24,000 nt of DNA from Alteromonas gilva. GTDB lineage: Bacteria; Pseudomonadota; Gammaproteobacteria; Enterobacterales; Alteromonadaceae. The DNA lies in contig NZ_JAQQXP010000004.1 in assembly GCF_028595265.1 (NCBI RefSeq), positions 132,179 through 156,178 of the forward strand. The letters run 5' to 3'. Made by a program: the position numbers and the translations under genes. Below the pieces are notes generated by a model. The model did not search any database. It saw nothing but the letters and a program-made list of their open reading frames with translations, and was not told where the DNA came from. Of this stretch, positions 3,053-20,940 are shown piece after piece. Position 1 is the stretch's first letter. Every line of letters starts with the position of its first letter.

Positions 3053-3058
3053 AAGGGA

Positions 3059-3546: not shown

Positions 3547-3562
3547 AAAATTTCCTTGTGGG

Positions 3563-3639: not shown

Positions 3640-4110
3640 TATCATTAACCGATTTAGCCACAACGAACCCACTGAAACCGATGGCTGACTCGATATACCA
3701 GCCGTTGTAATTATTACTTTCAAGATAATTTACTGTAGTTTCGATATCATCTTTCCATATATCGATTCCAGTTTTGGCTATTATTCTTTTCTTCTTCGAA
3801 GAGAGAGCTAATCGGCACGTTTTCAATGTCAATGATAATCGAATATGCAGTATGCACGAAATAATATATGGTAACTTCCGTGAAGGTGATTTCCGAAAAA
3901 TCGGTTTCTTTATCGGGGTAGCCAAAACCCAAATATAATTTTACAGTTTTGCCGTGGCCCGGAAACTTCGTATTTTTGACGATGATAATCGTGAAACCTC
4001 AATATAGCCTTATCAGCTTCCTTGGCACATAGACACAATGACTTCCTGTGAAATGCTATATTTTCGTTATGAAATGTTACCAATTCAAATAGTGGCGCCA
4101 CTATAGACAT
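3635..4110 (-). pseudogene. Probable frameshifted cassette gene read across three frames
   Basis: Three consecutive overlapping minus-strand ORFs in three frames each look protein-like. They read MSIVAPLFELVTFHNENIAF..KAIL, then GFTIIIVKNTKFPGHGKTVKLYLGFGYPDKETDFSEITFTEV..SSLFEEEK, then IAKTGIDIWKDDIETTVNYLESNNYNGWYIESAIGFSGF. Junctions are near 4000 and near 3785. Confidence 0.4.
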
Positions 4111-4154
4111 GAGTTTTAATAGAGGGGTTGTTATTCTTGACAGCAAAACAGCGA

Positions 4155-4184
4155 TAAGAAAAAGCCCGGGTGATTCCGGGCTTT
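4155..4184 (-). terminator. Rho-independent terminator after the large surface-protein gene
   Basis: Stem is aaagcccgg (4161-4169) / ccgggcttt (4176-4184) with a 6-nt loop. On the minus strand it is followed by TTTTTCTT. Confidence 0.7.
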
Positions 4185-4191
4185 CTATTAC

Positions 4192-7100
4192 TTACCAGCT
4201 TACATCCGTTTCGACAAATTCTCCGCCATTATCTACAGCGCGTATTGTCACTGTCAGGCTTGGGTAATCTGACTTACGGAAGTAAATCACCTTACCTGCA
4301 CGGAAGTCGACTTGGCCTTCCCATGTGTAATAGTAATTCACAATCTCGCCATCTTCGTCAGTACAGTTTGACCGGACATAGTAACGATCACCGCTGTCTT
4401 CCAATTCTGGCAAACAAATTGGCGGAATATTTGGCAATACATTGATAACCGTCGTGTATTCACCCACCTGAGCGTACTCAGAAGTCACCACCAACTTAAC
4501 TTCAAATGATCCAGCTTCATTGAATTCAATGTCAGTCGATGACACTGTGGAGCTCGACAGCTCTGCACCGTCCAAGAACCACTGATAGGTATCAGCATAA
4601 TCTTTTGGATGGCCAGGGTCTGCATATGCTCTCATGCCGACTCTTAATGGAGCACGGTTGAACTCATTGCTCGGTGACTCAACTAATTCAATTTCCATAG
4701 GGTCGGCATCCAGAATGTCTACGAACTCTGAGAAGTCACGCTCATTACCACGGTTATCTCTTACTCTTACTGTGACAAGATGAAGCCCAGGTTCATGAAC
4801 GGTGAAGTAGATGAAGTCATTACTATTTCTGGTAATCTCAATTGCATTCTCATCCACCAGCCACTCATACGTAAATTCAACGCCAGGCACGTCAGTATCG
4901 ATACCATTGATTCTGGCCGAGCCCTGTGAAGGTGCCACAGCAATCTTTGTATCTACTTCAAACTGGCCATCAGGGAACTCATACCTATGTGTAACAACGG
5001 TTTCAGTCTCTGAAGCAAAGGTTTCTGCTTTCAGTCCATTAACCCAAGCAGAATATTTAAAAGTAGCGATTCCACCAACAATGTCGGTTTCTTTTACCAG
5101 GTATTCCACTTCGCTTGCGTTCACAACAGCGCCGTCTGGAAGCTCTATTTCCTCTATGATATCTAAATTCAAGCTTGAGCTGGACGCCCTTGCAGAACCA
5201 GATATCTTCGCTACAAAGCCAGCTTCTGCGTAACGAGGGGTATCAATATTGACTCTCAATGGCTCTGGAGCAAGAACCCTAGTTTTCATTTTATCTGAAG
5301 CATAAGATTGCTCGCCCACGGTTTCACTTGTGGAATCTAAACGATACCGAACGTTCACATAGAAATCTGAATTCGCCATATGGTTAAAGGTATCAGTTCC
5401 TTCAGTCCATGTAGCTCCTTCATCTACTGACCACTCAAATACACCATCTGAAGCACCAACCAAGTCATCCGCAACAACAGCCGTGAATGTACCTTCCTGA
5501 CCTTCCAGCAACGTTGTGTCACCTTCAACTTCAATGTCAGCAACTTCATAACCAACAGCTTCCACTGTAGCACTGTAAGAAATCACACCAGTCAGTCTGT
5601 TTTCTGTTCTAACGCGATAGAACTTGGTGCCCGGCTCATTCATTCTAACACTGAAGAAATTAGTCACATTTTCAGTTTCACTCCAAGCAACACCATCATC
5701 AGACATTTCCCAGACAACTCCTGCTGAGGCATCTCTATCATTACGGCTGGCATACTGGAATCGTACAGTTGTACCAAATGGCACTTCTTCAGTGATCACT
5801 ACGTCACTTAGCTCACCTTCGATTGCGGTGCCTTTAAGGGTTTCAACTCGATGAGCACGAGAATCAATTTGCTGTTCAAATCCTGGAACGCCTGAAATGG
5901 CATCCATCAGCACATAGATATAACTGCCACTATCGAAAATGGTTTGGCCATCCATTATAAATTTAGCCTCACCAGATGCGTTAACCTGAACCGCATCGCC
6001 AATACGGACATACTCTCGCTCATCGTTCCGATAAGCTAGTTGGGCAGTCCACTCACCCATGCTGTCAGTATCATAGATGTATGACTTAGCACGACGGTCG
6101 TAGAAACCAACATTGGCAGTGAACTCAATAGTGTCTTCAGTTGTCGTTTCACCGACAACATCACTGATGACATAAGCCTTGGTCCGTGAATCTGGAGTGA
6201 TTACTGCGGTAAAGTTTTCAGCCACCTTAGACTCTGGCACGCGACGATACTGAACATCAACTTCATATTCTACTTCTGACCATACAGGCGCACTAGTTTC
6301 ACCCACACGCTCAATACGGCCTCTATAATTCTTTAAACTAAACCTGTCAGAACCACGATAGTTTACTGTTTCAGTCATTCCTTGAGCTGATATATTCAGA
6401 TCAATGTACGAATTCGCAGCAGCCAGATTGTAATCCGTTAATCGCTTTGAATTGTGGGGCATTGAATACAAGCCTTCCGAAATTCTACCTTTATCGGAAA
6501 TTACAAAGTCTAGCTCGGGACGCTCCAATGCTTCTATCGTCATAGAGTCACTATATGCAGCAACTTTTTCACCATTGTTATTATGGTAATAGACCGTGTA
6601 ACCAATCTCGTGCGTCCCAATGTCGTTTATAACGCCTTCCAGGTTATATCCCCGCCCCTGGAAAGTAGGCTCTAAACCATCTGGAATGTTATCAAACTCA
6701 ACCGTACAGCCTTTACGGATAGAAAGTGAAAGCGCAGCTGCAGCTTCGTCAGTGGCCGCGAAATAACACTTATCACCTTCAGACTGATAAAAATCCACAT
6801 CCATCTCAGTGACTTCTGAGTAAACTTGCGGCGGCGGATTGTTGAAGTTGAACTCTGACATCATGTATTCAAGCTTGAAGTTGCGAACCATCTCATTACC
6901 GCCACTATCAGAAGCCACTACTTCGACGTTCAAAACCTGACTGGGTAGAATTTCTGGATCACGCTTCAGCAGCACAATATTGTCTTGCACTACATCAATG
7001 TCTGCATCCTCACCATTTATCTTCACGGATGTGATGGTAGAGCCATCCGCCCACCCCCCATGCGCAAAGAAAGCCACGTCTTCCAGGAAGTACGTATCTA

Positions 7101-8379
7101 CCCCGGAACCTTCACGCAACTCAACAGAACCTATAAGACCTCTGATATCTGGTGCAAATCGGTCAATTAATCGATCTGTATATTCAGCAGTCCGACTGTT
7201 GTTGAATTTGTCCGAGGCAATTACTTCCGCACGATAGATACCGTCCGGAACATCATTAATGCTGTACTTAATAACAACCTTATCATTGGCGATAACCGGT
7301 TCACCGATTGCCTTTACGCTGTACTCCGTTCCATAACGGAAATTCGGTACCGAGAAATCAATCACACGCCCGTTGAACTCAATTTCATCAGTAGGCATCT
7401 GGCCATCTTGGATGTGTAGCTTGATTGTATTGGCTACCGGAATCCACCAATCTCCATCTTTACCGGCATGGGGTGTTTGCATTACCAGCAAGGCTTCATT
7501 TTCGTTGAGGGTGAAGTCAGTGCCTTCGATATTTTGGGTGATCACCCCCATATCCCCGGTGCCATTCACAATGAAATTGGTCACCTCTGGTGAGCGGTAG
7601 TCATAGTTGATACCAACCTCAGCCAGCGCCTCATCAAAGTACCCTTTGATATCTGCAACGCCAACCTGCTTAACATCTCGACCAAACGTTTCCGGCTCTG
7701 CGTCACCAGGAATGTAGTCAGGAAGAAATACGCGACACTCTTCTTCATCGATATCAACCTCACATTGCTGTCCATCGATAGAAAGCACCTGTCTAAATGG
7801 ACGCGTTTCAGCCTTAATCGTCACAGCCCTCAAATTACGTGTTTTACTGTAATTCTCTTGCTCCAGGCCTTCCACTTCCTCATCACCCCAATCAGCAACA
7901 ATGTCTAAGATCTTAGGAATCTCAGGTGACTCAACATCCAATGAATATGTACCGGTTAGCAGCTCTGTTTTAACACCATCATCGACAATTGATACTCGAT
8001 AATCAAAATCAACCGTAGAGGCAGTTTCAAGCACGCCTTTTAATTCCAGCGCATCAACTACCAAACCGTGTGATGTACCCGTCCACTCGAAGAAACACAA
8101 CGGCTTCGCGCCTTTGATGTATGTGTTATCTGCAGCAAACTCATCAGTCACGAAGTCGCATTCAATACCGTCTTTTTCAACCGTAAGCTTGAAGTCTTTT
8201 ACATACGCAACCGGTTGGCCCATTGACTCAATCTGGACGGTCGGGTTCACTGCTTCTACTTGGCCAGTGAAGGTTATGCTTTTAGCGTTTGCGTTTGACG
8301 AGAGCATCAGCGCCAATGAAACCACTGATAGCTTCAGTGCAGCTTTCGCTGTTGATTTATGCTTCATTAAATCACCCAT
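4192..8379 (-). CDS. Large secreted/surface protein with repeated Ig-like/PKD-like beta-sandwich modules (putative adhesin)
   Basis: The ORF is 1395 aa. It has a signal peptide, MKHKSTAKAALKLSVVSLALMLSSNANA/KS. PKD/Big-type strands recur: VTVRVRDNRGNERDF, TVTIRAVDNGGEFVE, NVEVVASDSGGNEMV, YRAEVIASDKFNNS. An alternative start is the ATG at 8367, preceded by GGTGA. Confidence 0.85.
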   Translation of the reverse strand: MGDLMKHKSTAKAALKLSVVSLALMLSSNANAKSITFTGQVEAVNPTVQIESMGQPVAYVKDFKLTVEKDGIECDFVTDEFAADNTYIKGAKPLCFFEWTGTSHGLVVDALELKGVLETASTVDFDYRVSIVDDGVKTELLTGTYSLDVESPEIPKILDIVADWGDEEVEGLEQENYSKTRNLRAVTIKAETRPFRQVLSIDGQQCEVDIDEEECRVFLPDYIPGDAEPETFGRDVKQVGVADIKGYFDEALAEVGINYDYRSPEVTNFIVNGTGDMGVITQNIEGTDFTLNENEALLVMQTPHAGKDGDWWIPVANTIKLHIQDGQMPTDEIEFNGRVIDFSVPNFRYGTEYSVKAIGEPVIANDKVVIKYSINDVPDGIYRAEVIASDKFNNSRTAEYTDRLIDRFAPDIRGLIGSVELREGSGVDTYFLEDVAFFAHGGWADGSTITSVKINGEDADIDVVQDNIVLLKRDPEILPSQVLNVEVVASDSGGNEMVRNFKLEYMMSEFNFNNPPPQVYSEVTEMDVDFYQSEGDKCYFAATDEAAAALSLSIRKGCTVEFDNIPDGLEPTFQGRGYNLEGVINDIGTHEIGYTVYYHNNNGEKVAAYSDSMTIEALERPELDFVISDKGRISEGLYSMPHNSKRLTDYNLAAANSYIDLNISAQGMTETVNYRGSDRFSLKNYRGRIERVGETSAPVWSEVEYEVDVQYRRVPESKVAENFTAVITPDSRTKAYVISDVVGETTTEDTIEFTANVGFYDRRAKSYIYDTDSMGEWTAQLAYRNDEREYVRIGDAVQVNASGEAKFIMDGQTIFDSGSYIYVLMDAISGVPGFEQQIDSRAHRVETLKGTAIEGELSDVVITEEVPFGTTVRFQYASRNDRDASAGVVWEMSDDGVAWSETENVTNFFSVRMNEPGTKFYRVRTENRLTGVISYSATVEAVGYEVADIEVEGDTTLLEGQEGTFTAVVADDLVGASDGVFEWSVDEGATWTEGTDTFNHMANSDFYVNVRYRLDSTSETVGEQSYASDKMKTRVLAPEPLRVNIDTPRYAEAGFVAKISGSARASSSSLNLDIIEEIELPDGAVVNASEVEYLVKETDIVGGIATFKYSAWVNGLKAETFASETETVVTHRYEFPDGQFEVDTKIAVAPSQGSARINGIDTDVPGVEFTYEWLVDENAIEITRNSNDFIYFTVHEPGLHLVTVRVRDNRGNERDFSEFVDILDADPMEIELVESPSNEFNRAPLRVGMRAYADPGHPKDYADTYQWFLDGAELSSSTVSSTDIEFNEAGSFEVKLVVTSEYAQVGEYTTVINVLPNIPPICLPELEDSGDRYYVRSNCTDEDGEIVNYYYTWEGQVDFRAGKVIYFRKSDYPSLTVTIRAVDNGGEFVETDVSW

Positions 8380-8463
8380 TTTTACTTCGCAGAGTTCCTA
8401 AGATGTCTACATTTTAAAGCAGTGTGACCACATGCCGATTCTACAGAGAGGGGTAATGCTTAA

Positions 8464-8483
8464 TGTCTATGGGATAAATTGCG
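8464..8483 (-). promoter_or_regulatory. Conserved box TGTCTAYGGGATAA(n)TGCG, copy 1, upstream of the surface-protein gene
   Basis: Sequence is tgtctatgggataaattgcg, with 84 nt between the box and the 8379 start. It is near-identical to the box at 10109-10127. A short flank similarity (ttacc, ct.t.gaa) follows on the gene side. Confidence 0.4.
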
Positions 8484-8492
8484 AAACAGATA

Positions 8493-8518
8493 GAAAAAAG
8501 CCTGCATGATTGCAGGCT
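8493..8518 (-). terminator. Rho-independent terminator after the Cys-rich protein gene
   Basis: Stem is agcctgca (8499-8506) / tgcaggct (8511-8518) with a 4-nt loop. On the minus strand it is followed by TTTTTT. Confidence 0.7.
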
Positions 8519-8535
8519 AACAAGGTTGTTCAGAA

Positions 8536-10023
8536 CTACCCTATAAATGGCGTTTCTTCTTTTTTAACGCATTGGACCCCTTTCTCGTCCACTTCATACC
8601 CTGCTGGACACTCCAGTACTGGGTCTTCAGTCAAGGTTCTCTCGCAAGTTGAATAATCTGCTGAAGGTGAGAATGTTTCATCATCACAATGCTTGAATAG
8701 ATACTCTTCGGTCAGCTTGCAACTCTCTCCATCTTCTTCCATAAGGAATGGTTCATCACAATGTCGCCCGGCAGGCTCATTGATATCTGTCTCGCAATTT
8801 CCAGTGGATGGATTAAAATCCCCACCGTCCAAACAATAATTGCCATATGGCTCAAAATTATATGTCAGGCAGCTCGAACCCGAAACACTACCACCACTTG
8901 GACAATAATATTCTTTATCAGAATAAGATTGGTACTCACAAACATGTTCGGCGCTATTATACGTGCCCCTAGTGCAATAAGGTACCTTTTCAGATTTGGA
9001 TGACGTAACTAGGCAAAAGTCAGATTTTAGAAAGTCCCCACTATTACAATCCCCCTCGTAGTGCGTATATGGAGCGGAGGTTTCACCATCTTTGTAACAC
9101 TGTTCATGATAAGTGTCGTATGTATATCCATCCCTACAACTTGGTACATAATAGTCATAGCAAGAACCATCATTACCTTCTATTTTAGATTGACAGTTGG
9201 TTCTTAGATAATAGTAGCTGTCTCTAATCGTTCTTTCGCACTCGGAGCCATTCCAACTCCCCTTTTTACAACCATAGGTCGCACTGTAACTTGTTGCTGT
9301 ACCTCTGCATTGACCACTTACGTCATCCCACCCCTCGCCACACTTTGACACTGGATGAGACTCCTGTTGAACACACATAACCCCCTCAAGAGATGAACCA
9401 GGATAAGCGGAACAATTATAAGGCGCTGCCTGTACCGTGACACGTGTACAATTCTCACCATTCTTCTCGTACCCATCATCACAGTACAATGTAATAGGCG
9501 CAGTCGAGTAGTTAACACATCGAATGCCATCGCTGGTGTCACTCACATACTCTGGGGAGCAGTTGATAGCCAGTACATCGTAAGTGACTGTCAAGCAACC
9601 ATCTTCTAGCTCCTGCTGCCCCGGCAAGCAAACCATTGATTTCACATCTGGAATATTCAAGGCGTAATTAACCACACCTTCAATCCCGCCGTCTGCCGGA
9701 TAAATTGGCAAGATAAGCTTGTGGCCTGAAGTGGTCAGATTCTGTACGAAAGTAAATGTTTCGCCAGGCTCAACCCTCTGGCCATTTACCATGACTGCGT
9801 AACTGGAAGCTCCATCCAAAGTGAAGTTAATGGTATGCGGCCCACGAGCAACTTTACCTTCTTCATCAAAGATGTTTGCAGTCTCAATTACCGTTGCTGG
9901 CTGACCATCTTCATAAGTCATTTCTTGGGCAACCGGGAAGGTTTTTACCTTCTCCAATGTGACCGTTTCCGCCCACAATGACGAGCTGATTAAAGCTGTT
10001 AAAAGTAGAAATAAATTTCTCAT
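8536..10023 (-). CDS. Secreted Cys-rich protein: N-terminal beta-rich domain followed by about 15 tandem Cys-x(9-13)-Cys hairpin units
   Basis: The ORF is 495 aa with signal peptide MRNLFLLLTALISSSLWA/ETV. Repeat units include CDDGYEKNGENC, CGEGWDDVSGQC, CRDGYTYDTYHEQC, CPAGYEVDEKGVQC, CKKGSWNGSEC and CLDGGDFNPSTGNC. Confidence 0.85.
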   Translation of the reverse strand: MRNLFLLLTALISSSLWAETVTLEKVKTFPVAQEMTYEDGQPATVIETANIFDEEGKVARGPHTINFTLDGASSYAVMVNGQRVEPGETFTFVQNLTTSGHKLILPIYPADGGIEGVVNYALNIPDVKSMVCLPGQQELEDGCLTVTYDVLAINCSPEYVSDTSDGIRCVNYSTAPITLYCDDGYEKNGENCTRVTVQAAPYNCSAYPGSSLEGVMCVQQESHPVSKCGEGWDDVSGQCRGTATSYSATYGCKKGSWNGSECERTIRDSYYYLRTNCQSKIEGNDGSCYDYYVPSCRDGYTYDTYHEQCYKDGETSAPYTHYEGDCNSGDFLKSDFCLVTSSKSEKVPYCTRGTYNSAEHVCEYQSYSDKEYYCPSGGSVSGSSCLTYNFEPYGNYCLDGGDFNPSTGNCETDINEPAGRHCDEPFLMEEDGESCKLTEEYLFKHCDDETFSPSADYSTCERTLTEDPVLECPAGYEVDEKGVQCVKKEETPFIG

Positions 10024-10193: not shown

Positions 10194-10862
10194 ATGCGAC
10201 CACACGCAAACATGGGTCATCGCACCACAGCAACCAACCAATATACAGGGCGCTCACAGGCTAATAACGCGCCTTACAGGGCGCGACAAGATCAACATCC
10301 AAGTCAACCATCAATTGGCGTCGATAACGCTACTACCAATCAAAATCAAGCGGCAGAAACCGGTGCGAAGAAGAAATTCAAGTCCATTAAATCGCATGGC
10401 AAACAATATGCAATCGAAGTCTCTGCAGATGTTACTCAGAAGAAATGGCACACCGTCAGGTTTGAAGCAGCTGCCAAGCTGAACAACGGCACCAAGGCAT
10501 ATGATTGGAAAAATAAAATCGGCGTCCAACTTACAAAGCAGGAGTTGCCTGTCGTAATCGGTACATTGCTTGGCTATTTGCCCGGCTGTGAATACTCCCA
10601 GCATGGCGATACCAACAAGGGTTTCTCGATTCAGAACCAACATAAGAACTTTTACTTCAAGGTGTTTGAGGCAAGCACCAATCGATTCATGAACTGCCCC
10701 GTTCCAATTGAAGAGGCACATTTAATGGGAATGCTTGTTTTGGCTGAACATACCAGAAATTTTGAGGGCGTGAGCTCCGATGCTGCGCTAACTGCTATTA
10801 AAAATATGTGTTTACAAATGTATAAACACTCCGCCTTCCCTGCGCCAAGAGCAAACAAATAA
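10194..10862 (+). CDS. Hypothetical protein with a low-complexity Q/N/T-rich N-terminus
   Basis: The ATG at 10194 is preceded by AGAGGA 7 nt upstream. The longer 10095 start has no RBS. The globular C-terminal part is protein-like (KQYAIEVSADVTQKKWHTVRFEAAAKL...). Confidence 0.7.
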   Translation: MRPHANMGHRTTATNQYTGRSQANNAPYRARQDQHPSQPSIGVDNATTNQNQAAETGAKKKFKSIKSHGKQYAIEVSADVTQKKWHTVRFEAAAKLNNGTKAYDWKNKIGVQLTKQELPVVIGTLLGYLPGCEYSQHGDTNKGFSIQNQHKNFYFKVFEASTNRFMNCPVPIEEAHLMGMLVLAEHTRNFEGVSSDAALTAIKNMCLQMYKHSAFPAPRANK

Positions 10863-10886
10863 CTGCTAGGGCTCTCTGTCCCTACC

Positions 10887-11285
10887 TTAATGTTCTGGCT
10901 TGACGATATGTGACAACTGCTCAATCCATTGAATCCTGATTGGCATTGCACTCGCCCAATTCTCCAACGTTTGATTGGGCGACTCATTTTGTATGCGAAT
11001 ACTGCGCACTATTGTTCTGACCAAGTTAAGGACGATCTTGGTCATCTTATATTCCTTTGACTCATCCCCGTAAAAGGCTTCAAAGTGCGCCTTTGCCGAC
11101 ATAAGCTCATCAGCCATGTCTTCTGCCAACCCTATATTAATTGACCCGTTTACCAGGTTCTTAGCAAAATCGAGCACGGTGGTTGACCGGTCGCCTCGCT
11201 TAACGTAATCAAGCGCCTTCATCATAAACTCCACAAAATTTGATGATGGCGATCTTACATATTCCGCCGACCATATGACGTTCAT
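10887..11285 (-). CDS. Hypothetical protein
   Basis: The ORF is 132 aa. No RBS precedes 11285. Internal ATG ATG at 11225/11222 is preceded by GGAG, so the true start may be there. Confidence 0.55.
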   Translation of the reverse strand: MNVIWSAEYVRSPSSNFVEFMMKALDYVKRGDRSTTVLDFAKNLVNGSINIGLAEDMADELMSAKAHFEAFYGDESKEYKMTKIVLNLVRTIVRSIRIQNESPNQTLENWASAMPIRIQWIEQLSHIVKPEH

Positions 11286-11372
11286 AGAGCATTAAAAATT
11301 CGTATGTCTGTGACATCCTATTATCTACTACCGCTTTATAATGTTCGCAAATTAAGCAACTGTGACAAAAAT

Positions 11373-11867
11373 ATGAGATTCTTTACTACTATTCTTGCCG
11401 CTTCGGCTCTAACTTTATCTGGCTGCAGCTGGTTTAGTGACGATATAAGGAATGGTCAGTCAAGTGAGCTGGGTGGATCTTGGTTTTACAATGAAGGCAC
11501 CTGCAGCAACTCTGTTGTCAGAGAGACACTATACGAAATCTCTTTTGGCAATGATTTGCCACCGGGTACTTTAAATTCTATTCACACGAATTCACCTCGA
11601 TTCACCACTTCGGCTCTCAACGAAGATGATCAGGTAGTGGTTGACGCTAAAACTCGCCTTGGCGAGTGCGAAGGATTCGATATACCAGCCGGGGAAGTGA
11701 TTTACATCACTTACGACAACGTGCGGAGCGTCCAGAAATTCTTGTTTTATAAAGATACAGGGAAACTGTATTCAATCACTAATAATCAAGTAATGCCCCT
11801 GATCAGGCTTACACATTTGAACATCCTGATTTCGCAAGAAGATCCCAGTATTAAAGAGACCCATTAG
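11373..11867 (+). CDS. Putative lipoprotein
   Basis: MRFFTTILAASALTLSGC has a lipobox L-S-G-C. A perfect TATAAT lies at 11337-11342 upstream. The 11304 start would add a non-signal extension and lies upstream of that -10 element. Confidence 0.7.
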   Translation: MRFFTTILAASALTLSGCSWFSDDIRNGQSSELGGSWFYNEGTCSNSVVRETLYEISFGNDLPPGTLNSIHTNSPRFTTSALNEDDQVVVDAKTRLGECEGFDIPAGEVIYITYDNVRSVQKFLFYKDTGKLYSITNNQVMPLIRLTHLNILISQEDPSIKETH

Positions 11868-11929
11868 CAGCACTTCAAATGGTTGCGCCACCTCGCCTTT
11901 GATAGAAAATGCATTTATCGATTAACTGG

Positions 11930-12224
11930 AGGAATTTGCATCGTCAACGACCCACGACTTTTTCGCTCAGCGAATAAAGTCGGGGCATGAAAGCCTGAGT
12001 TGACCAGACCCCGTCGGGCAACTGATGGAGCCGTTATCGGAGAATAGATAGGCACCGTGGGATGACTTGCCAGTTCCACGCTCTGCGGGAAGCGATTAAA
12101 CAGGCGTAATGGGTTAAGCCAGTGTCGTTTTCTTCAAACCTCCGACTAACTTGGTCGAGGCAAACATTACCCGTTTTATGCGGAGAGCGTCTGGTAACAG
12201 ACATTAATTTGGAGAATTGATATC
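11930..12224 (+). ncRNA. Candidate omega-RNA (guide plus scaffold) of the IscB nuclease; the 5' boundary is uncertain
   Basis: The interval 11868-12224 is a 357-bp non-coding leader immediately 5' of iscB, where IscB omega-RNAs are encoded. Several hairpins are visible: 11951-11985 (ccc-a-cgacttt/tcgc-tca-gcga/aaagtcg-ggg), 12055-12080 (cgtggga/ttccacg), 12139-12160 (cctccgac/gtcgagg) and 12167-12196 (ttacc/ggtaa). No credible ORF is present. Confidence 0.45.
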
Positions 12225-13610
12225 GTGAGAGTTTTGGTACTCGACAATCAGAAACAACCTTTAATGCCTTGTCGTCAAGCGCGAGCACGCCAACTCCTAC
12301 GTGATGGTAAAGCAGCGGTGTTTCGTCGTTATCCTTTCACCATCATCCTTAAGGAGAGACAGGGTGGTGATACTCAGCCAGTGTCATTAAGTGTCGATCC
12401 GGGAAGCAAAACTACCGGGATTGCACTGGTCGCGTTATTTCAACGTGGTCGTGTTGCCATTTACGGACAACACATTGTCCATCGTGGACAACAGATCAGG
12501 GATGCACTCGAAAGCCGTCGCGCTATCCGTCGTTCACGACGAAACCGAAAGACGCGCTATCGTCAGCCGCGCTTCTTAAACCGTACCCGCCCGAAGGGAT
12601 GGCTTCCGCCATCCTTAACATCACGGGTTCACAACTTGGAAACGTGGGCAAAACGCTTAATCGGTTCCGCTCCTGTGACTTCAGCCAATGTCGAAACCGT
12701 GCGCTTTGACATGCAGTTGATAGAGAATCCATCTATCGCCGGAAAAGAATACCAGCAAGGCTCACTGTTTGGTTGGGAGTTGCGCGAATACTTGCTGTAC
12801 CGGCACCAGCATATATGTGCGTATTGCCACGGACTGACAAGGGATGCCGTTCTTGAGAAAGAGCACATCATTCCCAAAGCACTGGGTGGCTCAAACCGAT
12901 TGGCTAACCATGTACTCAGTTGCCGGGAATGCAACGAGGACAAAGGTAAACTGCATCCGAACGCATGGGTTACACTGTGCGAACAACGTGCTGATAAGGT
13001 GAACCTTATGCGGTCAAAAAATATGACTCGCATTATGACTGGCTACCGTCCATCACTGAAAGATGCCGCTGCGGTCAATGCTACACGCTACGCCATCGGT
13101 AATCGAATCAAATCCATTATTTCAGACACCCACTTCTGGTCAGGCGGTCTGACTAAGAAGAATCGTTCTGAGCAGCGATACCTCAAAGACCATTGGATTG
13201 ATGCAGCGTGTGTCGGCCAAAACGGTGGCGCGGTATCGCTGGAATGCAATTATATCATTGTTGCTTCAGCCAAAGGGCATGGCTCACGACAGATGTGTCG
13301 TGTTGATAAGTACGGCTTTCCGCGTACTTCGGCCAAGTCACATTCAATCGTTCATGGATTTAGAACGGGGGATTTGGTGGTAGCCAATGTTCCTAATGGA
13401 AAAAAGCAAGGTCTGCATGTTGGTCGAGTCGCTGTTCGCAAGAACGGCTACTTCAACGTGCAAACCAAAAACGGTGCTGTGCAGGGGATATTTTACAAAA
13501 ACTGTCGGATAACTCAGCACAGCGATGGTTATAACTTTAACTATGGAGCGGCAATTCCTCCGACGACTCATTCAAAGATTCGAGTCGCGGTATCCTTGCC
13601 GAATTTTTGA
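12225..13610 (+). CDS. iscB: IscB-type OMEGA RNA-guided nuclease (PLMP, split RuvC, bridge helix, HNH, C-terminal TAM-interaction-like domain)
   Basis: GTG start preceded by GGAG. Motifs occur in IscB order: QPLMPC (aa 11-16); SVDPGSKTTG (D58); RRAIRRSRRNRKTRYRQPR (RRxRR); NVETVRFD (E157); CAYC...EKEHIIPKALGGSNRLANHVLSCRECNEDKG (HNH with 4 Cys); KDHWIDAACVG (H323/D326); tail GDLVVANVPNGKKQGLHVGRVAVRKNGYFNV. Confidence 0.9.
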   Translation: MRVLVLDNQKQPLMPCRQARARQLLRDGKAAVFRRYPFTIILKERQGGDTQPVSLSVDPGSKTTGIALVALFQRGRVAIYGQHIVHRGQQIRDALESRRAIRRSRRNRKTRYRQPRFLNRTRPKGWLPPSLTSRVHNLETWAKRLIGSAPVTSANVETVRFDMQLIENPSIAGKEYQQGSLFGWELREYLLYRHQHICAYCHGLTRDAVLEKEHIIPKALGGSNRLANHVLSCRECNEDKGKLHPNAWVTLCEQRADKVNLMRSKNMTRIMTGYRPSLKDAAAVNATRYAIGNRIKSIISDTHFWSGGLTKKNRSEQRYLKDHWIDAACVGQNGGAVSLECNYIIVASAKGHGSRQMCRVDKYGFPRTSAKSHSIVHGFRTGDLVVANVPNGKKQGLHVGRVAVRKNGYFNVQTKNGAVQGIFYKNCRITQHSDGYNFNYGAAIPPTTHSKIRVAVSLPNF

Positions 13611-14278
13611 TGAAATACAAAGGCCACTTTGACGGGGCGTGCAACCCTAACCCAGGGGCTATCGGCCTTGGTATTTCTATCAATGACGATGCCGGGCAAG
13701 AAATTGACTATGGATACATGCCTAAAGGTACCGGCACAAACAATGAGGCTGAATACCTTGCTGTCCTGTTGCTGCTTCAAAGAGCCCTTCACATGGGTAT
13801 AACCAGCATTGAATGTGTTGGTGACTCTAAATTGGTCGTTAATCAATTAAATGGCACTTACAGAATCAACCAGGATTCACTGCTGAAACTTCACGGCAAG
13901 GTCATGCACCTTGTTAATCAGTTTGACAGTTGTGAATTTCTCTGGGTGAGAAGACAGCATAACACTCGGGCAGATGAACTATCAAAGATGGCTCTTGAAA
14001 CGAACGAGTCTTTCTTTAGCCAAGCACCAACAATTACAAAAAAAGCAGCACAGGCGCCCAGTGAGGCTCCGAAGGCCGAACACGTAAATCGTATACCAGT
14101 GGTTAAAACCTTAACTGATGGTCGTATATTCATTTCTGACAGCCGGGGGATAAGCATCCTTGAGCCCCGCTCCAGAACATGCACTTGCAGTTGTTTCCAT
14201 AAGCACAAAAGCTGCTTTCATCTGAATACATTTTTACGCCTGAAGCACAAGCCTCAAAAGGTTGCACTAATAGGATAA
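13610..14278 (+). CDS. RNase H (type 1 fold) fused to a C-terminal SWIM-like Cys/His zinc-finger region
   Basis: The ATG at 13610 overlaps the iscB TGA (TGATG). The DEDD set is present: HFDGAC, NNEAEY, VGDSKLV, NTRADEL. A Lys/Ala/Pro linker follows, then TCTCSCFHKHKSCFH (CxC...CxH) at 14180-14221. Confidence 0.85.
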   Translation: MKYKGHFDGACNPNPGAIGLGISINDDAGQEIDYGYMPKGTGTNNEAEYLAVLLLLQRALHMGITSIECVGDSKLVVNQLNGTYRINQDSLLKLHGKVMHLVNQFDSCEFLWVRRQHNTRADELSKMALETNESFFSQAPTITKKAAQAPSEAPKAEHVNRIPVVKTLTDGRIFISDSRGISILEPRSRTCTCSCFHKHKSCFHLNTFLRLKHKPQKVALIG

Positions 14279-14322
14279 CTGTTAAGCTAAACACAAATCG
14301 AATTTGAAAATCGGAGTAGGAT

Positions 14323-14790
14323 ATGAATCGTGGTATTAATAAAGTCATCTTGGTCGGGAACCTTGGTAACGACCCAGAAGTACGTTACATGCCCAACGGC
14401 AACGCCGTTGCCAACCTGAGCCTGGCTACCAGCGAAAGTTGGAAGGATCAGCAAGGTCAAATGCAGGAGCGTACTGAATGGCATCGCTTAACCATGTATC
14501 GTCGCCTGGCGGAAGTAGCTGGTGAGTACCTGAAGAAAGGCTCACAAATTTACGTAGAAGGTAAACTGCAAACCCGCAAATGGCAGGATCAGCAAGGCCA
14601 GGATCGCTATACTACTGAAATCATTGTTGACCAAATGCAAATGCTAGGTGGTGGTAGTGTTGACGATGGAGGTCAGCGCTCCGGAGGTAATCAGCGCGGT
14701 CAACAGCCTCCGCCAACACAACAACCTAGTCAAGGAAGTGGATACCAGCAGCCAGCTCCGCTGCCTGACTTCGATTTTGATGATAACTAG
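14323..14790 (+). CDS. ssb: Single-stranded DNA-binding protein, ending at a TAG just before an in-frame P-F-stop
   Basis: The OB-fold N-terminus [44 protein letters not shown] is canonical SSB. A Gly/Gln/Pro-rich linker follows, then the acidic tail [12 protein letters not shown] lies 7 nt upstream of the ATG. Confidence 0.92.
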
Positions 14791-14867: not shown

Positions 14868-15818
14868 TTAGCTATCATTTCCATTGCTAATATGTGCAGC
14901 ATACATCTCAGCATGTCTAAGTACATGCTCAGCCGACTTCACATCATCTAACATCTCAATTGCTGGCCTTGGTAGCGGCTCCAGGCCTTCTATACATGTG
15001 GGATATGGCTCTTGTTCCAGCCACTGAAACACTTTATTTCTCTTCCTTAAAGCCGCAAACAACACATCAAAGATTTCCAAGGCCAGCTGTCGTTGGCCAA
15101 ACCACTCCATAGGTTTTCTGATTGGGAGTTTTATTGGGATTCTTTCTCGATGTTGCTCTGTGATCTTGTATGGGAACTGCGCGGCTTCTAGCTCTTCTGA
15201 ATTAAAATACAACCTTAGCCAGCTTGAGCATCTAGCCAAGGTAGGGGATGGACTCCTGCTTTCCTCAAAGCCTGGCGTTACTATACCCACATTCACATGC
15301 TCCATCGATTGCAGGGTTTCATACAATCTAACGAAATCAGTGTCATTTGATACAAACACCATATGCTGCTGCCGAGTATCTGTCAGAGCATCCTTCATGG
15401 CTTCAACGGCAATATTTACGTCAGTTTGCTTCTCTTCTATCCGCCAAACTGAGACATTCTCACAATCCGGATGCAATGCTTTGGGATTATCTTTATCAAC
15501 CAACCTTTGGTTATACGGCCGCACGCTATGGTAGCCAAATATAATATCCAGAACATCATCAGAGTAAGAGGCTAACAAAGCGGAATGATATGCTTCCTGG
15601 TCACGCTTGGCGGTTTTGGAAAACGTAACTTTTGGCTCAACAAGAGATGTGAAGTACTTCACTTTGAGGTCGATGTCTGCTGCATTCAGCAAATGTGGAG
15701 GGGCTGACTCTCTGACAATTTGCTCAATTAGCTTTACCGGATCTAGCCATTTATGGGGTCCATGCTTTAGAGAGCCGTAATAAAGATTGTATCCATCAAT
15801 ATAAATACGTAGTATCAA
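14868..15818 (-). CDS. NYN-domain (PIN-like, LabA-like) predicted ribonuclease
   Basis: NYN acidic-residue pattern is present: IYIDGYNLYYG, EEKQTDVNIAVEAMKDAL, VFVSNDTDFVRL. The ORF is 316 aa. Confidence 0.8.
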   Translation of the reverse strand: MILRIYIDGYNLYYGSLKHGPHKWLDPVKLIEQIVRESAPPHLLNAADIDLKVKYFTSLVEPKVTFSKTAKRDQEAYHSALLASYSDDVLDIIFGYHSVRPYNQRLVDKDNPKALHPDCENVSVWRIEEKQTDVNIAVEAMKDALTDTRQQHMVFVSNDTDFVRLYETLQSMEHVNVGIVTPGFEESRSPSPTLARCSSWLRLYFNSEELEAAQFPYKITEQHRERIPIKLPIRKPMEWFGQRQLALEIFDVLFAALRKRNKVFQWLEQEPYPTCIEGLEPLPRPAIEMLDDVKSAEHVLRHAEMYAAHISNGNDS

Positions 15819-15836
15819 ATCCCTTTACCCCGGAAA

Positions 15837-15862
15837 CGAAAAAACCGGCAAAGCAGCCGGCC
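15837..15862 (-). terminator. Rho-independent terminator after the three-gene minus-strand operon
   Basis: Stem is ccggc (15845-15849) / gccgg (15856-15860). On the minus strand it is followed by TTTTTT. Confidence 0.6.
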
Positions 15863-15973
15863 TTTTCACCCTAGTCTCGAAAGTCGCGATGCATCCGTAG
15901 AATTCGGGTTAGTTGTTATTTTTAATATTAGCAGTGAATGACTACCATACTGGTCTAACCAGTTAGGCCGCAT

Positions 15974-16567
15974 TTATGAAAACCTCGCTGTAGCCATTTC
16001 TCTAAACGCCCTTTCAGCATCGAAAGCAAAACGGTTCACCTGCTGCAATATATTAGCAACACACCGACCTCCTTCAAGGATAATTTGACTTCTCATCTTT
16101 ATCTTTGATTTTTCATTGTACAAGGTGGAAACATTGAACATGGCGTTGATAGCATTCATTTGAAAATAATCAGCATGAACAATAGGATCAAACTCACATA
16201 ATGCCTGAATAGATTCAGTGTACTCGCCCTCGCCCCAACCGCTTGCGTCACCCATCGCTTCAAAGGTCAGTTTGCCATAGTAGGTTTTAATAAGCACCAT
16301 TCTGGTGTTCTCAGGCCCCTTAACAACACAAGGCGTGGCTTCTACCGTCATCCCCAGGATATCCACCAGCTCTTCGGCCGTAACCATTTCTATCATGCTG
16401 TGATGCAACTTATGAGAATTCTCACTGTTATCCAATTGCTCACTCGTTCCGCCCTTTCTCACCAGCAGACCTTCAGTAAGGCCACCTACATCCGGATGAG
16501 CAATCTGCTCTCTTGCCGAGCCTGTATTTTCAGAGTCAAAATTAATATCCGGTACATTTTTTTTCAT
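15974..16567 (-). CDS. Hypothetical cytoplasmic protein
   Basis: The ORF is 197 aa with an ATG start, 7 nt after the stop of the upstream gene. Composition is protein-like. No motif was recognised with confidence. Confidence 0.65.
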   Translation of the reverse strand: MKKNVPDINFDSENTGSAREQIAHPDVGGLTEGLLVRKGGTSEQLDNSENSHKLHHSMIEMVTAEELVDILGMTVEATPCVVKGPENTRMVLIKTYYGKLTFEAMGDASGWGEGEYTESIQALCEFDPIVHADYFQMNAINAMFNVSTLYNEKSKIKMRSQIILEGGRCVANILQQVNRFAFDAERAFREMATARFS

Positions 16568-16574
16568 TGATTTA

Positions 16575-17054
16575 CTAAAAGCCTATTACATAAGTTAGAG
16601 AAGCGCTGGCAATTCCAAGAGATAAAACCCATTCACCAATGGAGTTGGTATCCGCTACCAACCATGCTCTGTAGGTTTTTCTTGATGGGTAAAACAAAGT
16701 CACACCCGAAGGGGTAAGAAAGTCTCCAAGCAAATGGAGGAAGTATCCTACCGCGACCCAGTAGATCCATAGCGCTTCAAATTGATAGGCCAGCAACACA
16801 ATCAAAGCGCAAGCCAGAAGGCTATGTGTGAACCCTCTATGCCCAAAAACGATATGTATGGGATAAGATAGCCACCTACACCGCCGACCTATGGTTGAAT
16901 CTGGATGGTCAATGTCAGGAAGTAACACTCCCAGCATGACCAACCCCCAGGTTAAAGCAAAACTTGTATCTGCTTGCCAAGCGCCGCCTGTTGCCCAGTG
17001 AACATAACTCACGAAGGCAGAGGCAGCGACTATCATGTGGCCAGCAATCATCAT
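16575..17054 (-). CDS. Membrane-bound metal-dependent hydrolase-like protein (YdjM/DUF457 family)
   Basis: Multi-pass hydrophobic protein with the family His/Asp pattern: LLPDIDHPDSTIG, GHRGFTHSL, HLLGDFLTPSGV. Confidence 0.75.
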   Translation of the reverse strand: MMIAGHMIVAASAFVSYVHWATGGAWQADTSFALTWGLVMLGVLLPDIDHPDSTIGRRCRWLSYPIHIVFGHRGFTHSLLACALIVLLAYQFEALWIYWVAVGYFLHLLGDFLTPSGVTLFYPSRKTYRAWLVADTNSIGEWVLSLGIASASLTYVIGF

Positions 17055-17066
17055 TGCGACAAAACC

Positions 17067-17834
17067 TTAAAATGCGCCAGTGCGAACACTGTCACCTGTC
17101 GCTTCAGGGTTAGTGTCCTTGGAAGCATTATCTGCTTCCGATTGCTTACGGATGATTTCAGCGCGGTTTTGGAGTGCTTCCTGCTCACGGTTGAACTGTG
17201 CCAGCTTTTCACTTTCCACCTGCTTACGACGCTTATCTAAACGACGCTCAAGATCATCAAATGACGCTCTGACAGTCTTATCCAGAGTTTTATTGCGCTC
17301 CTGCTGCAACACCTTGTTGAACGCATCAAATGGCAGCTTCAGCAAGACATAAGCATGATTAACACCACGGATAGGCTTTACAACCTGCTCAATGACTTCG
17401 TAACCAACAATCGGCACAGAATCCACCAGCTTATCGATCAAAAATTCAGTCTGAGTGACTACATCACCATCAGAATTGCCACGCTCAAACGCACGCTCAG
17501 AGCCGGACAGCTCCTGCTTGTACATCTTGGCCAGATCAAACTCTGCCTGTAATCGCGCAGCCTTTATCACATGAGACAGGCTTTTAGACTTTGCGATGCC
17601 GACACCATACATGCCTGTGCCATCAGATTGAGGCGGCTCTAATACCCAGTCCGGGGCGGCTTCAATTTCTTCTTCACGCTGTTCCTGCATGACCTCTTCA
17701 CGGGCTTCCTGAACATCCAGACGCTGCTCTTCCAGCTCTTCTAAGCGATTGGCCAAATCCCCATTAGAGGAAGCACAGCCACCCAAAAACAAACCAGTAA
17801 CAACCGTAAGTAATAATGTCTTTTTCATAGTCAC
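17067..17834 (-). CDS. Lipoprotein with a coiled-coil-rich sequence
   Basis: Signal and lipobox MKKTLLLTVVTGLFLGGC. Charged E/R/Q-rich stretches lie at both ends. The central region GMYGVGIAKSKSLSHVIKAARLQAEFDLAKM resembles the LPP20-type lipoprotein fold (low certainty). Confidence 0.75.
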   Translation of the reverse strand: MTMKKTLLLTVVTGLFLGGCASSNGDLANRLEELEEQRLDVQEAREEVMQEQREEEIEAAPDWVLEPPQSDGTGMYGVGIAKSKSLSHVIKAARLQAEFDLAKMYKQELSGSERAFERGNSDGDVVTQTEFLIDKLVDSVPIVGYEVIEQVVKPIRGVNHAYVLLKLPFDAFNKVLQQERNKTLDKTVRASFDDLERRLDKRRKQVESEKLAQFNREQEALQNRAEIIRKQSEADNASKDTNPEATGDSVRTGAF

Positions 17835-17912
17835 TCTCCAATGTAGTGAAGTATTTTAAGTTAATCTCTCATGCCATCTTGTTAATAGACGGTTTTGAAT
17901 TCGGGGGTCTAC

Positions 17913-19013
17913 TTACTCAAATACAATTGTGCAATCGTCTTCCGACCACCCATACCACCTCCCAGTTTTGTTACATTCATTAAGACGGCGTAATGCACCA
18001 TCGACCTTTATTTTGGCACTATATGTTCGCTTCTCACTTAACACGTATGGCTGGCAAATATCAGCATTCACATACTCAGTTGCCACGAAAGTAAACTCCC
18101 TGACATCAATCCCCGCGAGTAAAGCCACATACTTATAAAACTCCTGCTGGACGTCGTAACTAAGGTTGTTTAACTGCCTTAGAAACTCTTCCGGCTTAGT
18201 TGAAGCTGTAGTTTTCATATCTACAGCAGTATCGTCATGGCGCAACCAATCGAACTTGACCTTCAACATCATCCCCGTGACAGGGCATCGAGCAATGATG
18301 GCCACTTCTGGCAAACCATTCTGGAAATATGCATTTGCTTCAGCATGATCCCGGGTGGTCTTGGCTGCCCGGTGGGCGTCATCCCACACCTGCCCATCGA
18401 CAGGAACCTTCCCGCCATATGTGGTGATTTCTTCACCCTCAACCATCTCCTGCTTAGGCTCACCCTGCTTGGCATAAAGCTTCTCTTTAATGTCATCAAA
18501 AATCTGAATCTTTGGATTGGCTTCAATTAAACGTTGAACCTTTTCAGCCTTTGTTCCAGACTTTTTCAGCCCTAATGCAACCAACTCCACTTCAATTTGA
18601 GTTGCGGTTTGCAAGGCATCAGGATAATCAGACGGCACAACATCGCGAAAAAACTGCTTGTAATAACCCTCTGGCTCCAGGATCAATGTATGAGCGTGCG
18701 TACCCGCATCAAACGTTCTCTTCTGCGTTAATGTTCGCTTCCGCTCAATACCGGATAAATATTCACGGTAGTAGTGTGCTGGTGAAGACATGAACGTCTT
18801 AAGCTTTGATGAACTAAGGGCCGGCAGAGAGTGATAAACATCATTCGGCATATCGAGATAAATCCCCTCGATAAGCTCACCCTGACAATCCCTGAAAAGT
18901 TCCTCTCCACTATCCCCATATGAAGGCTGTGCTCTTTCCGCCCAGTTCGACAATAAATTGTCAGATGGAAATACCTCTCCTGTTAGCTCATCAATACTTA
19001 CTGCTACTGACAT
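17913..19013 (-). CDS. PD-(D/E)XK exonuclease, RecE/exonuclease VIII C-terminal-domain-like
   Basis: YLDMPNDVYHSLPALSSSKLKTF, AGTHAHTLILEPE, VKFDWLRHDDTAVDMKTT (D...D-x-K) and QQEFYKY match the PDDEXK exonuclease-VIII-like pattern. The ATG at 19013 is preceded by GAGG. The longer GTG start at 19052 is less supported. Confidence 0.75.
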   Translation of the reverse strand: MSVAVSIDELTGEVFPSDNLLSNWAERAQPSYGDSGEELFRDCQGELIEGIYLDMPNDVYHSLPALSSSKLKTFMSSPAHYYREYLSGIERKRTLTQKRTFDAGTHAHTLILEPEGYYKQFFRDVVPSDYPDALQTATQIEVELVALGLKKSGTKAEKVQRLIEANPKIQIFDDIKEKLYAKQGEPKQEMVEGEEITTYGGKVPVDGQVWDDAHRAAKTTRDHAEANAYFQNGLPEVAIIARCPVTGMMLKVKFDWLRHDDTAVDMKTTASTKPEEFLRQLNNLSYDVQQEFYKYVALLAGIDVREFTFVATEYVNADICQPYVLSEKRTYSAKIKVDGALRRLNECNKTGRWYGWSEDDCTIVFE

Positions 19014-19159
19014 AAACACCTCGTCACATTCGATTTGAGAACATTTAAACACGGTTTAAAAATCCCGCTACCAAACGTCCCACATCGCTATACCCCTTGT
19101 ATTCATAGGGTTTCAACAGCCAGATTCATTCGGTGGCGAGAAATTCAAGGCGTCTTATC

Positions 19160-20002
19160 ATGTCTACAGTTTCAAACACCGGAGCAACAAACATGCTGAA
19201 CAGAAATGAGTTAATTGCCTTATATAAAGATGAAGAGTTTAAGGCGTCGTTTATTGCCAACTATGTTGATAAAAATGTGCATCTGCATGTAGCACAGAAA
19301 GAATTCATTACCGCTTTTAATTTGATTGCCAATGACAATGGCAGTCAGGAACGACCCGCCATAAAGCAGGCCTCTGCCAGCTCCATTAAAAGCACCTTTT
19401 TGATGATCAGCTCCTATGGGCTCTCCTTCGACCCTAATGAAAAGGAGGTTTACGTCTACGGCGAGCATCGTGACCCAAATAAGGTTGGTTTAGGGGTTAC
19501 CTTGGGATATCGCGGCATGCGCCGGATTGCGATGAATTCCGGAAAGGTGAAGGTGATCACTTCAGAGATTGTTTACGAGTCTGACAGCTTCACTTGGTTG
19601 GGCGCCGATAAAGCACCTAGCTTTGCAAGTACTGGGCGCAACCAGGATGACAACATCTCATGCGGATTTGTCACCATTAGACTGATGGATAACAGCGTTG
19701 TGTCTTTCAAAATGTCAGCAGCCGAGTTGCTACAAATTGAAAATGACAACATCCAGATGGAAACAGAGTTCACTGGCGATCCAAACAATTCACTGTATCG
19801 AACAGCCTGGCGTGAACGCTGCCTAAGAGCTGCTTTGTGGCGCAGTGCTTACCGTGAGTATCAACACTTATTCATGGATACCGGAAAAATCGTAGACGAC
19901 CAAGGCACGCTGGAGTCAGAAACGGAAACCGCAGACGCTTTTGAAGCAATGATGGCAGAGGCATTAGCCGAGAATGACAACCCACAAGCTGTGAACGCTT
20001 AA
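19160..20002 (+). CDS. recT: RecT/Bet-family single-strand annealing protein
   Basis: The RecT-like core is ASSIKSTFLMISSYGLSFDP...VTLGYRGMRRIAMNSGKVKVITSEIVYESDSF. It is divergent from the exonuclease gene. The ATG at 19160 has AAGG upstream; the GTG at 19133 is an alternative. Confidence 0.8.
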   Translation: MSTVSNTGATNMLNRNELIALYKDEEFKASFIANYVDKNVHLHVAQKEFITAFNLIANDNGSQERPAIKQASASSIKSTFLMISSYGLSFDPNEKEVYVYGEHRDPNKVGLGVTLGYRGMRRIAMNSGKVKVITSEIVYESDSFTWLGADKAPSFASTGRNQDDNISCGFVTIRLMDNSVVSFKMSAAELLQIENDNIQMETEFTGDPNNSLYRTAWRERCLRAALWRSAYREYQHLFMDTGKIVDDQGTLESETETADAFEAMMAEALAENDNPQAVNA

Positions 20003-20013
20003 GGAGAAATGCT

Positions 20014-20928
20014 GTGAGAGATACCGTTATTGCATTAAACGGCCTGTATGGGGCACAGAAAAATCGCGAGCTAACTGTTTGGTTAAATGAGCAGTTTGCT
20101 CGCCAAGGCTCTTTTGAGGGTGGCTCAGTGTCACTGTCTGACATTAAAGAAGAGAGCATTATCAATGCCATTTTGGAAGCAGATGCGGAGTTATCTTTAA
20201 CCGTAGATCAGTTAATTCGCCATGTAATGGTTGTCCCGGCCTTAAGTAAAAACCATCAGACGTTTGAGCCTGTAATTAGATTCAAATCCGGCTTTTTTAA
20301 GTCATTGCTTCACTATGGTAAGCAAATCAAAATCGACGCCGTGGAAGCTGTTCGATTGGGCGATAAATTTGAACGCTATGGCAACGACAAGCATGTTTTC
20401 CACCAGCAGGCAGCGAACAACCATGATGCTCAGGTATTAATGGTGTACTTAAATGGGACTATCAAAGGCACAGAACAGGAGTTCTCAGTCGTACTGAATG
20501 AAAAAGAAGTGGCGGCCATCAAGACTGAAATGATCGACAAGTTCTATAACGGTGTTGACCCGTTCACAGCAGGTGAATGGTTAGATGTTGTTTTCAGTGC
20601 ATTATTCACCCGGATGTATGATGAAGACATCTTCATCGTTCTCCAGTCCATATTGTCAGACAGTCACTTTGAGCTTTACAAAAAGCTCAAAGCGTTCGGT
20701 GTGGGCAGATTCAACCCCCATTCAAATGGTGGCCTAAAGGTCTATTCATCTTATGGTAAGCACATCGGAACCAAGCGTTTTGCATTCAATGCTATCGAAA
20801 GAAAGCAGCAGGAAAGCACTTCACCACCAGAACTCAAAATAATTACCGGTGGTGCTGGCAAGCCGAAAAAGACCGAAACCAAAAAGCACATCGACGAAGA
20901 CATCATGAAGGACTTCGGCGGCTTTTAA
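20014..20928 (+). CDS. Hypothetical protein, possibly a divergent second RecT-like protein
   Basis: GTG start with AAGGAG 7 nt upstream, 11 nt after the recT stop. VIRFKSGFFKSLLHYGKQIKIDAVEAVRLGDKFERYG is collinear with the RecT core of the preceding gene. It ends in the basic-then-acidic tail KKHIDEDIMKDFGGF. Confidence 0.65.
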   Translation: MRDTVIALNGLYGAQKNRELTVWLNEQFARQGSFEGGSVSLSDIKEESIINAILEADAELSLTVDQLIRHVMVVPALSKNHQTFEPVIRFKSGFFKSLLHYGKQIKIDAVEAVRLGDKFERYGNDKHVFHQQAANNHDAQVLMVYLNGTIKGTEQEFSVVLNEKEVAAIKTEMIDKFYNGVDPFTAGEWLDVVFSALFTRMYDEDIFIVLQSILSDSHFELYKKLKAFGVGRFNPHSNGGLKVYSSYGKHIGTKRFAFNAIERKQQESTSPPELKIITGGAGKPKKTETKKHIDEDIMKDFGGF

Positions 20929-20940
20929 TTAGGAACTTCA

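Follow-up and report, generated by a model that had tools for sequence, protein, structure and literature searches.

Directly upstream of an iscB gene in Alteromonas gilva lies a 357-bp interval rich in predicted hairpins, and the question it raises is whether it encodes the guide RNA of the neighboring nuclease and, if so, where the guide itself comes from. We examined the interval within a window of 24,000 nt, the whole stretch of DNA analyzed. A first-pass annotation of the same DNA had placed the interval at 11868–12224, correctly, between a lipoprotein-like ORF and the iscB GTG. The features on which the first part of the analysis turns are:

11304–11867, + strand: lipoprotein-like ORF upstream of the interval (ORF listing)
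11943–12203, + strand: omega-RNA (HEARO) scaffold, consisting of the Rfam-modeled part, 11943–12170, and two further conserved hairpins
12034–12288, antisense: ORF in the interval (ORF listing)
12225–13610, + strand: iscB, 461 aa, GTG start, Shine-Dalgarno GGAG at 12211–12214 (Pfam RRXRR and HNH)

The interval encodes a HEARO/omega-RNA scaffold

Scanning the whole window at Rfam gathering thresholds returned a sole match, to HEARO (RF02033) at 11943–12170 on the plus strand. The match covers the full model (positions 1–211 of 211), reaches 121.8 bits (E = 4.5e-25; gathering score 83) and stops 54 nt 5′ of the iscB GTG at 12225, on the same strand. Published work has identified HEARO as the IscB omega-RNA, whose 5′ “spacer” programs DNA cleavage. 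Across 31 homologous loci from genomes, metagenomes and viral contigs, a scan found the same arrangement, HEARO directly upstream of iscB, in 23. In an alignment of 19 homologous RNAs, 34 of the 45 consensus pairs carried compensatory changes on both sides, a count that does not equal independent events, as the alignment takes in close relatives. The segment 11927–12224 folded at −101.4 kcal/mol, compared with a shuffle mean of −84.7 (z = −3.4), and none of 200 shuffles folded as well. The first-pass annotation had proposed an omega-RNA 5′ of and abutting iscB with the guide at its 5′ end, to be checked with an IscB omega-RNA covariance model and by fold and covariation in homologous loci; the RF02033 match, the homologues and the covariation strongly support this proposal. 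By these measures, the RNA encoded upstream of iscB belongs to the HEARO/omega-RNA family and is unexceptional within it, a textbook case of a curated RNA family beside a gene already annotated as IscB.

Mapping the covariation-supported consensus onto the window revised several of the hairpins drawn from the single sequence. An outer stem pairs 11943–11948 with 11999–12004; it encloses the hairpin at 11951–11985, which had been recognized correctly but without this stem around it. The hairpin described at 12055–12080 is also real in the consensus, where 12052–12063 pairs with 12073–12086. The one described at 12139–12160 dissolves in the family consensus, as it is not a local structure: 12141–12150 pairs at long range with 12033–12041, and 12154–12156 with 12007–12009. 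The feature at 12167–12196 is structured, as reported, but consists of two small conserved hairpins (12171–12174/12180–12183 and 12189–12193/12198–12202), the second of them terminator-like. Both are conserved past the end of the Rfam model. RF02033 lacks downstream structural elements (Meers et al.), and the ~33 nt of conserved hairpins outside the model in the window (12171–12203) reproduce this family feature. The RNA otherwise resembles RF02033 in the full model it matches, in its position 5′ of iscB on the same strand, in its variable 5′ segment and in its covarying helices; it differs in a 15-nt insertion in the first hairpin, common to the relatives L009, L018 and L022. Scaffold identity to L018 and L009 is 89–90%, at a divergence of pS 0.51 at iscB synonymous sites, a contrast that points to selection on the RNA.

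The terminator-like hairpin at 12189–12202 just before the iscB Shine-Dalgarno, together with a conserved region that extends to the iscB start codon, would also suit an interval acting mainly in cis, as a riboswitch- or attenuator-like leader for iscB translation or transcription rather than as a trans-acting guide RNA. We regard this as extremely improbable, given that the RNA family has been established experimentally as the IscB guide in published work; any cis role of the 3′ hairpins would be additional to the guide role. A protein-coding role for the antisense ORF at 12034–12288 was rejected: the ORF recurs in L007 because the RNA sequence is conserved, and for no other reason.

The scaffold and iscB lie within a delimited insertion sequence

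The RNA and the nuclease gene turned out to be parts of one element, with the following features:

11943–13609, no strand assigned: non-autonomous IS200/IS605-family insertion sequence, 1,667 bp (empty site in L015 and homologue conservation)
11951–11985, no strand assigned: right-end subterminal hairpin, identical with the first omega-RNA hairpin, 8 nt inside the boundary (DNA fold)
13560–13590, no strand assigned: left-end subterminal hairpin, in the iscB 3′ coding region (DNA fold)

On the iscB-sense strand, the order is right end, omega-RNA, iscB, left end. The boundaries come from an uninterrupted relative, L015, which carries homologues of the genes for the 1395-aa, the ~495-aa, the lipoprotein-like and the RNase H proteins and of ssb, without iscB. 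By blastn, window 10365–11935 corresponds to L015 6416–7993, and window 13617–14659 to L015 8008–9051, leaving a gap of 1,681 bp in the window versus 14 bp in L015. The sequences are colinear across the junction (...GCATC|ATGAAA in the window, ...CATC|ATGATC in L015), so the element extends from 11943 to 13609, a length of 1,667 bp. No bases are duplicated at the junctions relative to the empty site. L015 is ~75% identical, and its junction reads ATGAT, not ATGAA. Among close relatives of the element, homology stops right at the iscB stop, at 13609.

Both ends carry matching hairpins. The right-end stem, CCCACGACT...AGTCGGGG, is similar to that of the left end, CCGACGACTC...GAGTCGCGG, and the two change in step between subfamilies. 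A 19-nt spacer (13591–13609) separates the left-end hairpin from the boundary; on the strand that reads TTCAT, the layout is TTCAT, the 19-nt spacer, the hairpin 13590–13560, and, at the other end, the hairpin 11985–11951, 8 nt and the boundary. This matches the canonical IS608-type arrangement. The possibility had been raised that the hairpin at 11951–11985 is a relic IS200/IS605 left-end palindrome and not part of an omega-RNA. It is indeed a transposon-end hairpin, but an intact one, and by the TnpA convention it belongs to the right end; moreover, the two readings do not compete, as the one hairpin serves both functions. A relic end was rejected on the matching hairpins, intact at both ends.

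The ends are not peculiar to this element. Positions 13557–13595 (39 nt) match at 37 of 39 positions a sequence beside a TnpB-related gene on plasmid pAMCP48-600 of Alteromonas mediterranea (NZ_CP018025.1). On that plasmid, the TnpB-related gene is flanked on both sides (L042 3001–3039 and ~4436–4466) by the hairpin of the window left end, in the form CGACTCATTCAAAGAAT[C/T]GAGTCG. From these sequence matches, the ends, and probably a transposase, appear to be common to IscB and TnpB elements in Alteromonas, which suggests one TnpA supplied in trans. The 24-kb window contains no TnpA-like ORF. Most IscB elements have no tnpA close by and rely on transcription from outside (Meers et al.).

Several searches addressed the distribution of the element. 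Copies occupy different sites in sister subfamilies (L013 versus L020, both from metagenomes). The closest relatives of the window IscB are ~84% identical in protein sequence, with no identical second copy found; a genome-collection scan yielded 8 relatives, A. gilva itself not among them. A near-identity DNA search with the whole window against plasmids and phages returned no matches. The left-end 16-mer GGAGCGGCAATTYCTC had 43 matches in viral contigs, none with an IscB gene, and these were taken as chance; when plasmids were searched with a reconstructed donor joint of 100 nt, the sole matches were 41-nt ones in Bacillus, at chance level.

The element closely parallels ISGst5, which encodes GstIscB in Geobacillus stearothermophilus (Meers et al.). 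Both are non-autonomous IS200/IS605 elements with the scaffold at the right end and the guide outside, both have a co-oriented upstream gene and the same flanking motif (TTCAT, equal to ATGAA on the iscB strand), and in both the end hairpins recur in tnpB elements from that genus (ISGst1–5 in Geobacillus). The window element differs in its gammaproteobacterial host and in its iscB ORF, which reaches the last base of the element and has its stop completed by the flanking motif.

The element separates a ribosome-binding site from its start codon

Downstream of the left end, two features overlap:

13610–13615, + strand: target-adjacent motif ATGAAA in the 3′ flank (flank of all 15 insertions; GstIscB motif)
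13610–14278, + strand: RNase HI-family gene, 222 aa (protein called by NCBI from the ATG at 13610)

The sequence ATGA[A/C] stands directly 3′ of all 15 distinct close-family insertions. The target-adjacent motif of GstIscB, defined experimentally and written 5′ of the left end, is TTCAT; ATGAA(A) at 13610 is its reverse complement. The exact empty site would be TGGAGGAATTTGCATCATGAAA. When it is reconstructed as ...TTAACTGGAGGAATTTGCATC|ATGAAATACAAAGGC..., the ribosome-binding site GGAGG stands ahead of the ATG that opens the RNase HI-family gene, placing the insertion point between the two. The RNase H-like gene therefore appears to be without a ribosome-binding site of its own. The iscB ORF crosses the left end, and its TGA stop (13608–13610) is made of the last two bases of the element and the A of the flanking ATG; that the stop shares this A suggests that translation of the RNase H gene may now be coupled to the iscB stop.

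At its C terminus, the RNase HI-family protein carries ~90 additional residues that have no Pfam match and contain a Cys/His cluster (CTCSCFHKHKSCFH). Its gene lies just before ssb in the window and in the relatives L015, L016 and L017.

The guide is flanking DNA and varies with the insertion site

The 5′ boundary of the element also fixes the 3′ end of the guide:

11927–11942, + strand: guide segment TGGAGGAATTTGCATC (conservation stop at 11943; colinear with the uninterrupted L015 site)

Identity among loci starts exactly at G11943 (GTCAAC...) and runs to the iscB start codon, with unrelated bases upstream. L013 and L020 combine one scaffold with different 5′ flanks, and the guides of the window, L018 and L009 likewise differ over a common scaffold. 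As conservation begins at 11943 and the upstream sequence differs among copies with the same scaffold, the guide is read as transposon-flanking DNA at ~11927–11942, with a 5′ end that may extend further upstream; a length of 16 nt is assumed from published IscB guides. The segment makes up the final ~16 nt of the 5′ flank, occurs once in the window and includes GGAGG, the ribosome-binding site of the RNase HI-family gene that the insertion interrupts. The suggestion that the guide is possibly fixed does not survive these comparisons, in which it changes between insertions with the same scaffold. The guide drawn ahead of the first hairpin, ggaatttgcatcgtcaacga, was partly flank, as it should be, but overshot by 8 nt: 8 of its 20 bases (gtcaacga) fall in the first scaffold stem. 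The segment GTCAACGA, the first bases of the transposon, forms the 5′ strand of the outer scaffold stem.

The scaffold comes from the transposon right end, the guide is outside the element, and transcription must also start outside (Meers et al.). A σ70-like pair, TTGATA/TTAACT, had been put forward as the promoter; it failed the criteria of our promoter scan, a consensus search that found no promoter-like (σ70) site in 11250–12350. The proposed start of transcription near 11934 was also untenable as the source of the guide: only 9 nt of guide would remain, so that this promoter alone could not yield a working one. By eye, a candidate promoter can be made out at TTGCGC (11883–11888) and GAAAAT (11905–11910), both conserved in L015.

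These data also bear on the idea that the IscB has been domesticated, with a fixed guide serving the host or a mobile element (for example, by repressing or cutting a defined target) and no longer as part of a transposon. A single copy in the window, the lack of a nearby tnpA and the co-directional position of the gene in an operon-like array with RNase H and ssb would fit such a role. We nevertheless judge it very improbable: the 16 nt upstream of the scaffold are conserved in no homologue and vary by insertion site, the flanking motif and the two transposon ends are intact, in forms typical of the family, a relative (L015) retains the uninterrupted site, and the nuclease residues are intact. 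On balance, we read the locus as a transposon-borne iscB with a guide set by its insertion site.

IscB is intact and under purifying selection

The iscB ORF matches Pfam RRXRR (1.2e-69) and HNH, and its product is 100% identical to the NCBI entry “RNA-guided endonuclease IscB [Alteromonas gilva]”. The PLMP motif (residues 12–15), the RuvC residues D58, E157, H323 and D326, and the HNH residues H214 and N228 are all conserved, and alignment to IscB proteins of solved structure, OgeuIscB among them, shows the catalytic residues intact. The domain plan is that of an IscB, with a split RuvC, an arginine-rich bridge helix and an inserted HNH domain. Compared with OgeuIscB (PDB codes 7XHT and 7UTN), the domain order and catalytic residues align (PLMP, RuvC D/E/H-x-x-D, HNH H/N), whereas overall similarity is distant (E ~1e-23, in two partial stretches), and the C-terminal ~130 residues, which include the motif-reading region, gave no sequence alignment to the solved structures. 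The published motif of OgeuIscB is NWRRNA, and the ATGAAA of the window fits it.

Across relatives, iscB dN/dS was 0.06–0.11 in six of seven pairs, the seventh (L025) being synonymously saturated; judged by these ratios, iscB is under purifying selection. This argues against the reading of the locus as a decayed relic, an immobile element whose IscB and omega-RNA are no longer made or are inactive. Such decay might be suspected from the failure to find identical copies, a tnpA in the window or a promoter. Most IscB elements, however, are likewise without a nearby tnpA and rely on outside transcription, the covariance model is matched over its full length, with 121.8 bits, iscB is intact with its catalytic residues and a dN/dS of ~0.1, and both end hairpins are intact. 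We consider decay very unlikely, if marginally less so than domestication, and favor an element that would still be functional.

The 3′ end of iscB varies within the family. The gene is not closed within the element: its stop is split as TG|A in copies of the window type and as A|TGA in the L013/L007 type. In L024 (2330–2409), the frame misses the stop and iscB continues for 24 more codons, out of frame with the lipoprotein gene that lies downstream. In L009 and L018, iscB stops 26 nt before the element end, making their IscB 9 residues shorter than that of the window. An Aliidiomarina copy (L002 698–2021) is a 1,324-bp deletion derivative with a truncated iscB. A second IscB, P0003, is recorded for the same 176-kb A. 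gilva contig; it is 84% identical to the first and 458 aa long, the same length as P0005 and P0006, the latter being the protein of L013.

Most insertions coincide with gene starts

In 11 of the 15 distinct close-family insertions, an ORF of at least 60 aa starts at the junction ATG (the window, L007, L013, L018, L020, L024, L025, L002, L009, L022 and L089). In L087 and L090, the element lies in the 5′ UTR, 13 and 20 nt ahead of a called gene start, which brings to 13 of 15 the insertions that sit on a start codon or no more than 20 nt before one. Among the first 11 insertions analyzed, the junction ATG opens an ORF of 100 aa or more in nine, against 83 of 506 control ATGA[AC] sites (16%) in the same flanks; 18 of the 506 were start-like. 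More distant IscB loci mostly have an ATG at the predicted left-end boundary, where boundaries were placed by eye. Several of the 5′ flanks, and hence of the guides, include the Shine-Dalgarno sequence of the host gene.

It is conceivable, and we propose it tentatively, somewhat short of an even chance, that this IscB element family is specialized for, or strongly filtered by selection to, exact gene start codons. On this reading, ATGAA would be a Met-Lys/Asn gene start and the guide the ribosome-binding region of the host gene itself; the host promoter would drive the omega-RNA and iscB, and the displaced gene would be re-coupled translationally to iscB. If general, the pattern would secure transcription of the guide from outside and limit harm to the host gene. 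It may also be a trivial outcome of the motif combined with selection against gene disruption. No description of the arrangement was found in the literature searched.

A proposed cycle of excision, cleavage and restoration

Taken as a whole, 11943–13609 is very probably a non-autonomous IS200/IS605-family element that carries iscB and its omega-RNA and would cut its donor joint by the published mechanism, in which IscB cleaves the donor joint and recombination restores the element (Meers et al.). Transcription would enter from outside, starting in the 75-nt intergenic region or reading through from the lipoprotein gene, which has the same orientation. The first stretch of the transcript, ~11927–11942, would be the flank-derived guide, and 11943 to ~12203 the IscB-binding scaffold. 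TnpA acting in trans would excise the element, which may still be mobile, leaving an empty donor joint of TGGAGGAATTTGCATC followed by ATGAAA. The IscB–omega-RNA complex would recognize this joint and cut it with RuvC and HNH, and homologous recombination with an element-bearing copy would reinstall the element. The occupied site would be spared because the guide match there precedes GTCAAC and not the motif.

What had been described as a 357-bp “leader” is, in these terms, part of a fully delimited mobile element with guide, scaffold, nuclease gene, both ends and target motif. With it, a marine gammaproteobacterium contributes a natural IscB/omega-RNA pair that has a deduced ATGAA motif and a defined native target and is directly testable.

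Genomic surroundings

By its gene content, the window appears to belong to a conjugative element. Besides an SSB gene, the surroundings of the insertion (933–10023 and 14868–23975) include:

1607–2971, − strand: Fic protein
4192–8379, − strand: Ig/PKD-like protein, 1395 aa
8536–10023, − strand: cysteine-rich, secreted-looking protein, ~495 aa, no family match
14868–15818, − strand: NYN protein
17913–19052, − strand: PD-(D/E)XK nuclease
19133–20002, strand not given: RecT
22968–23975, − strand: TraG P-loop protein

Relatives of the element occupy similarly mobile DNA: L089 lies in a phage, between terminase and portal genes; L090 in a conjugative plasmid, before a TraG/TrwB-like gene; and L091 adjoins an integrase.
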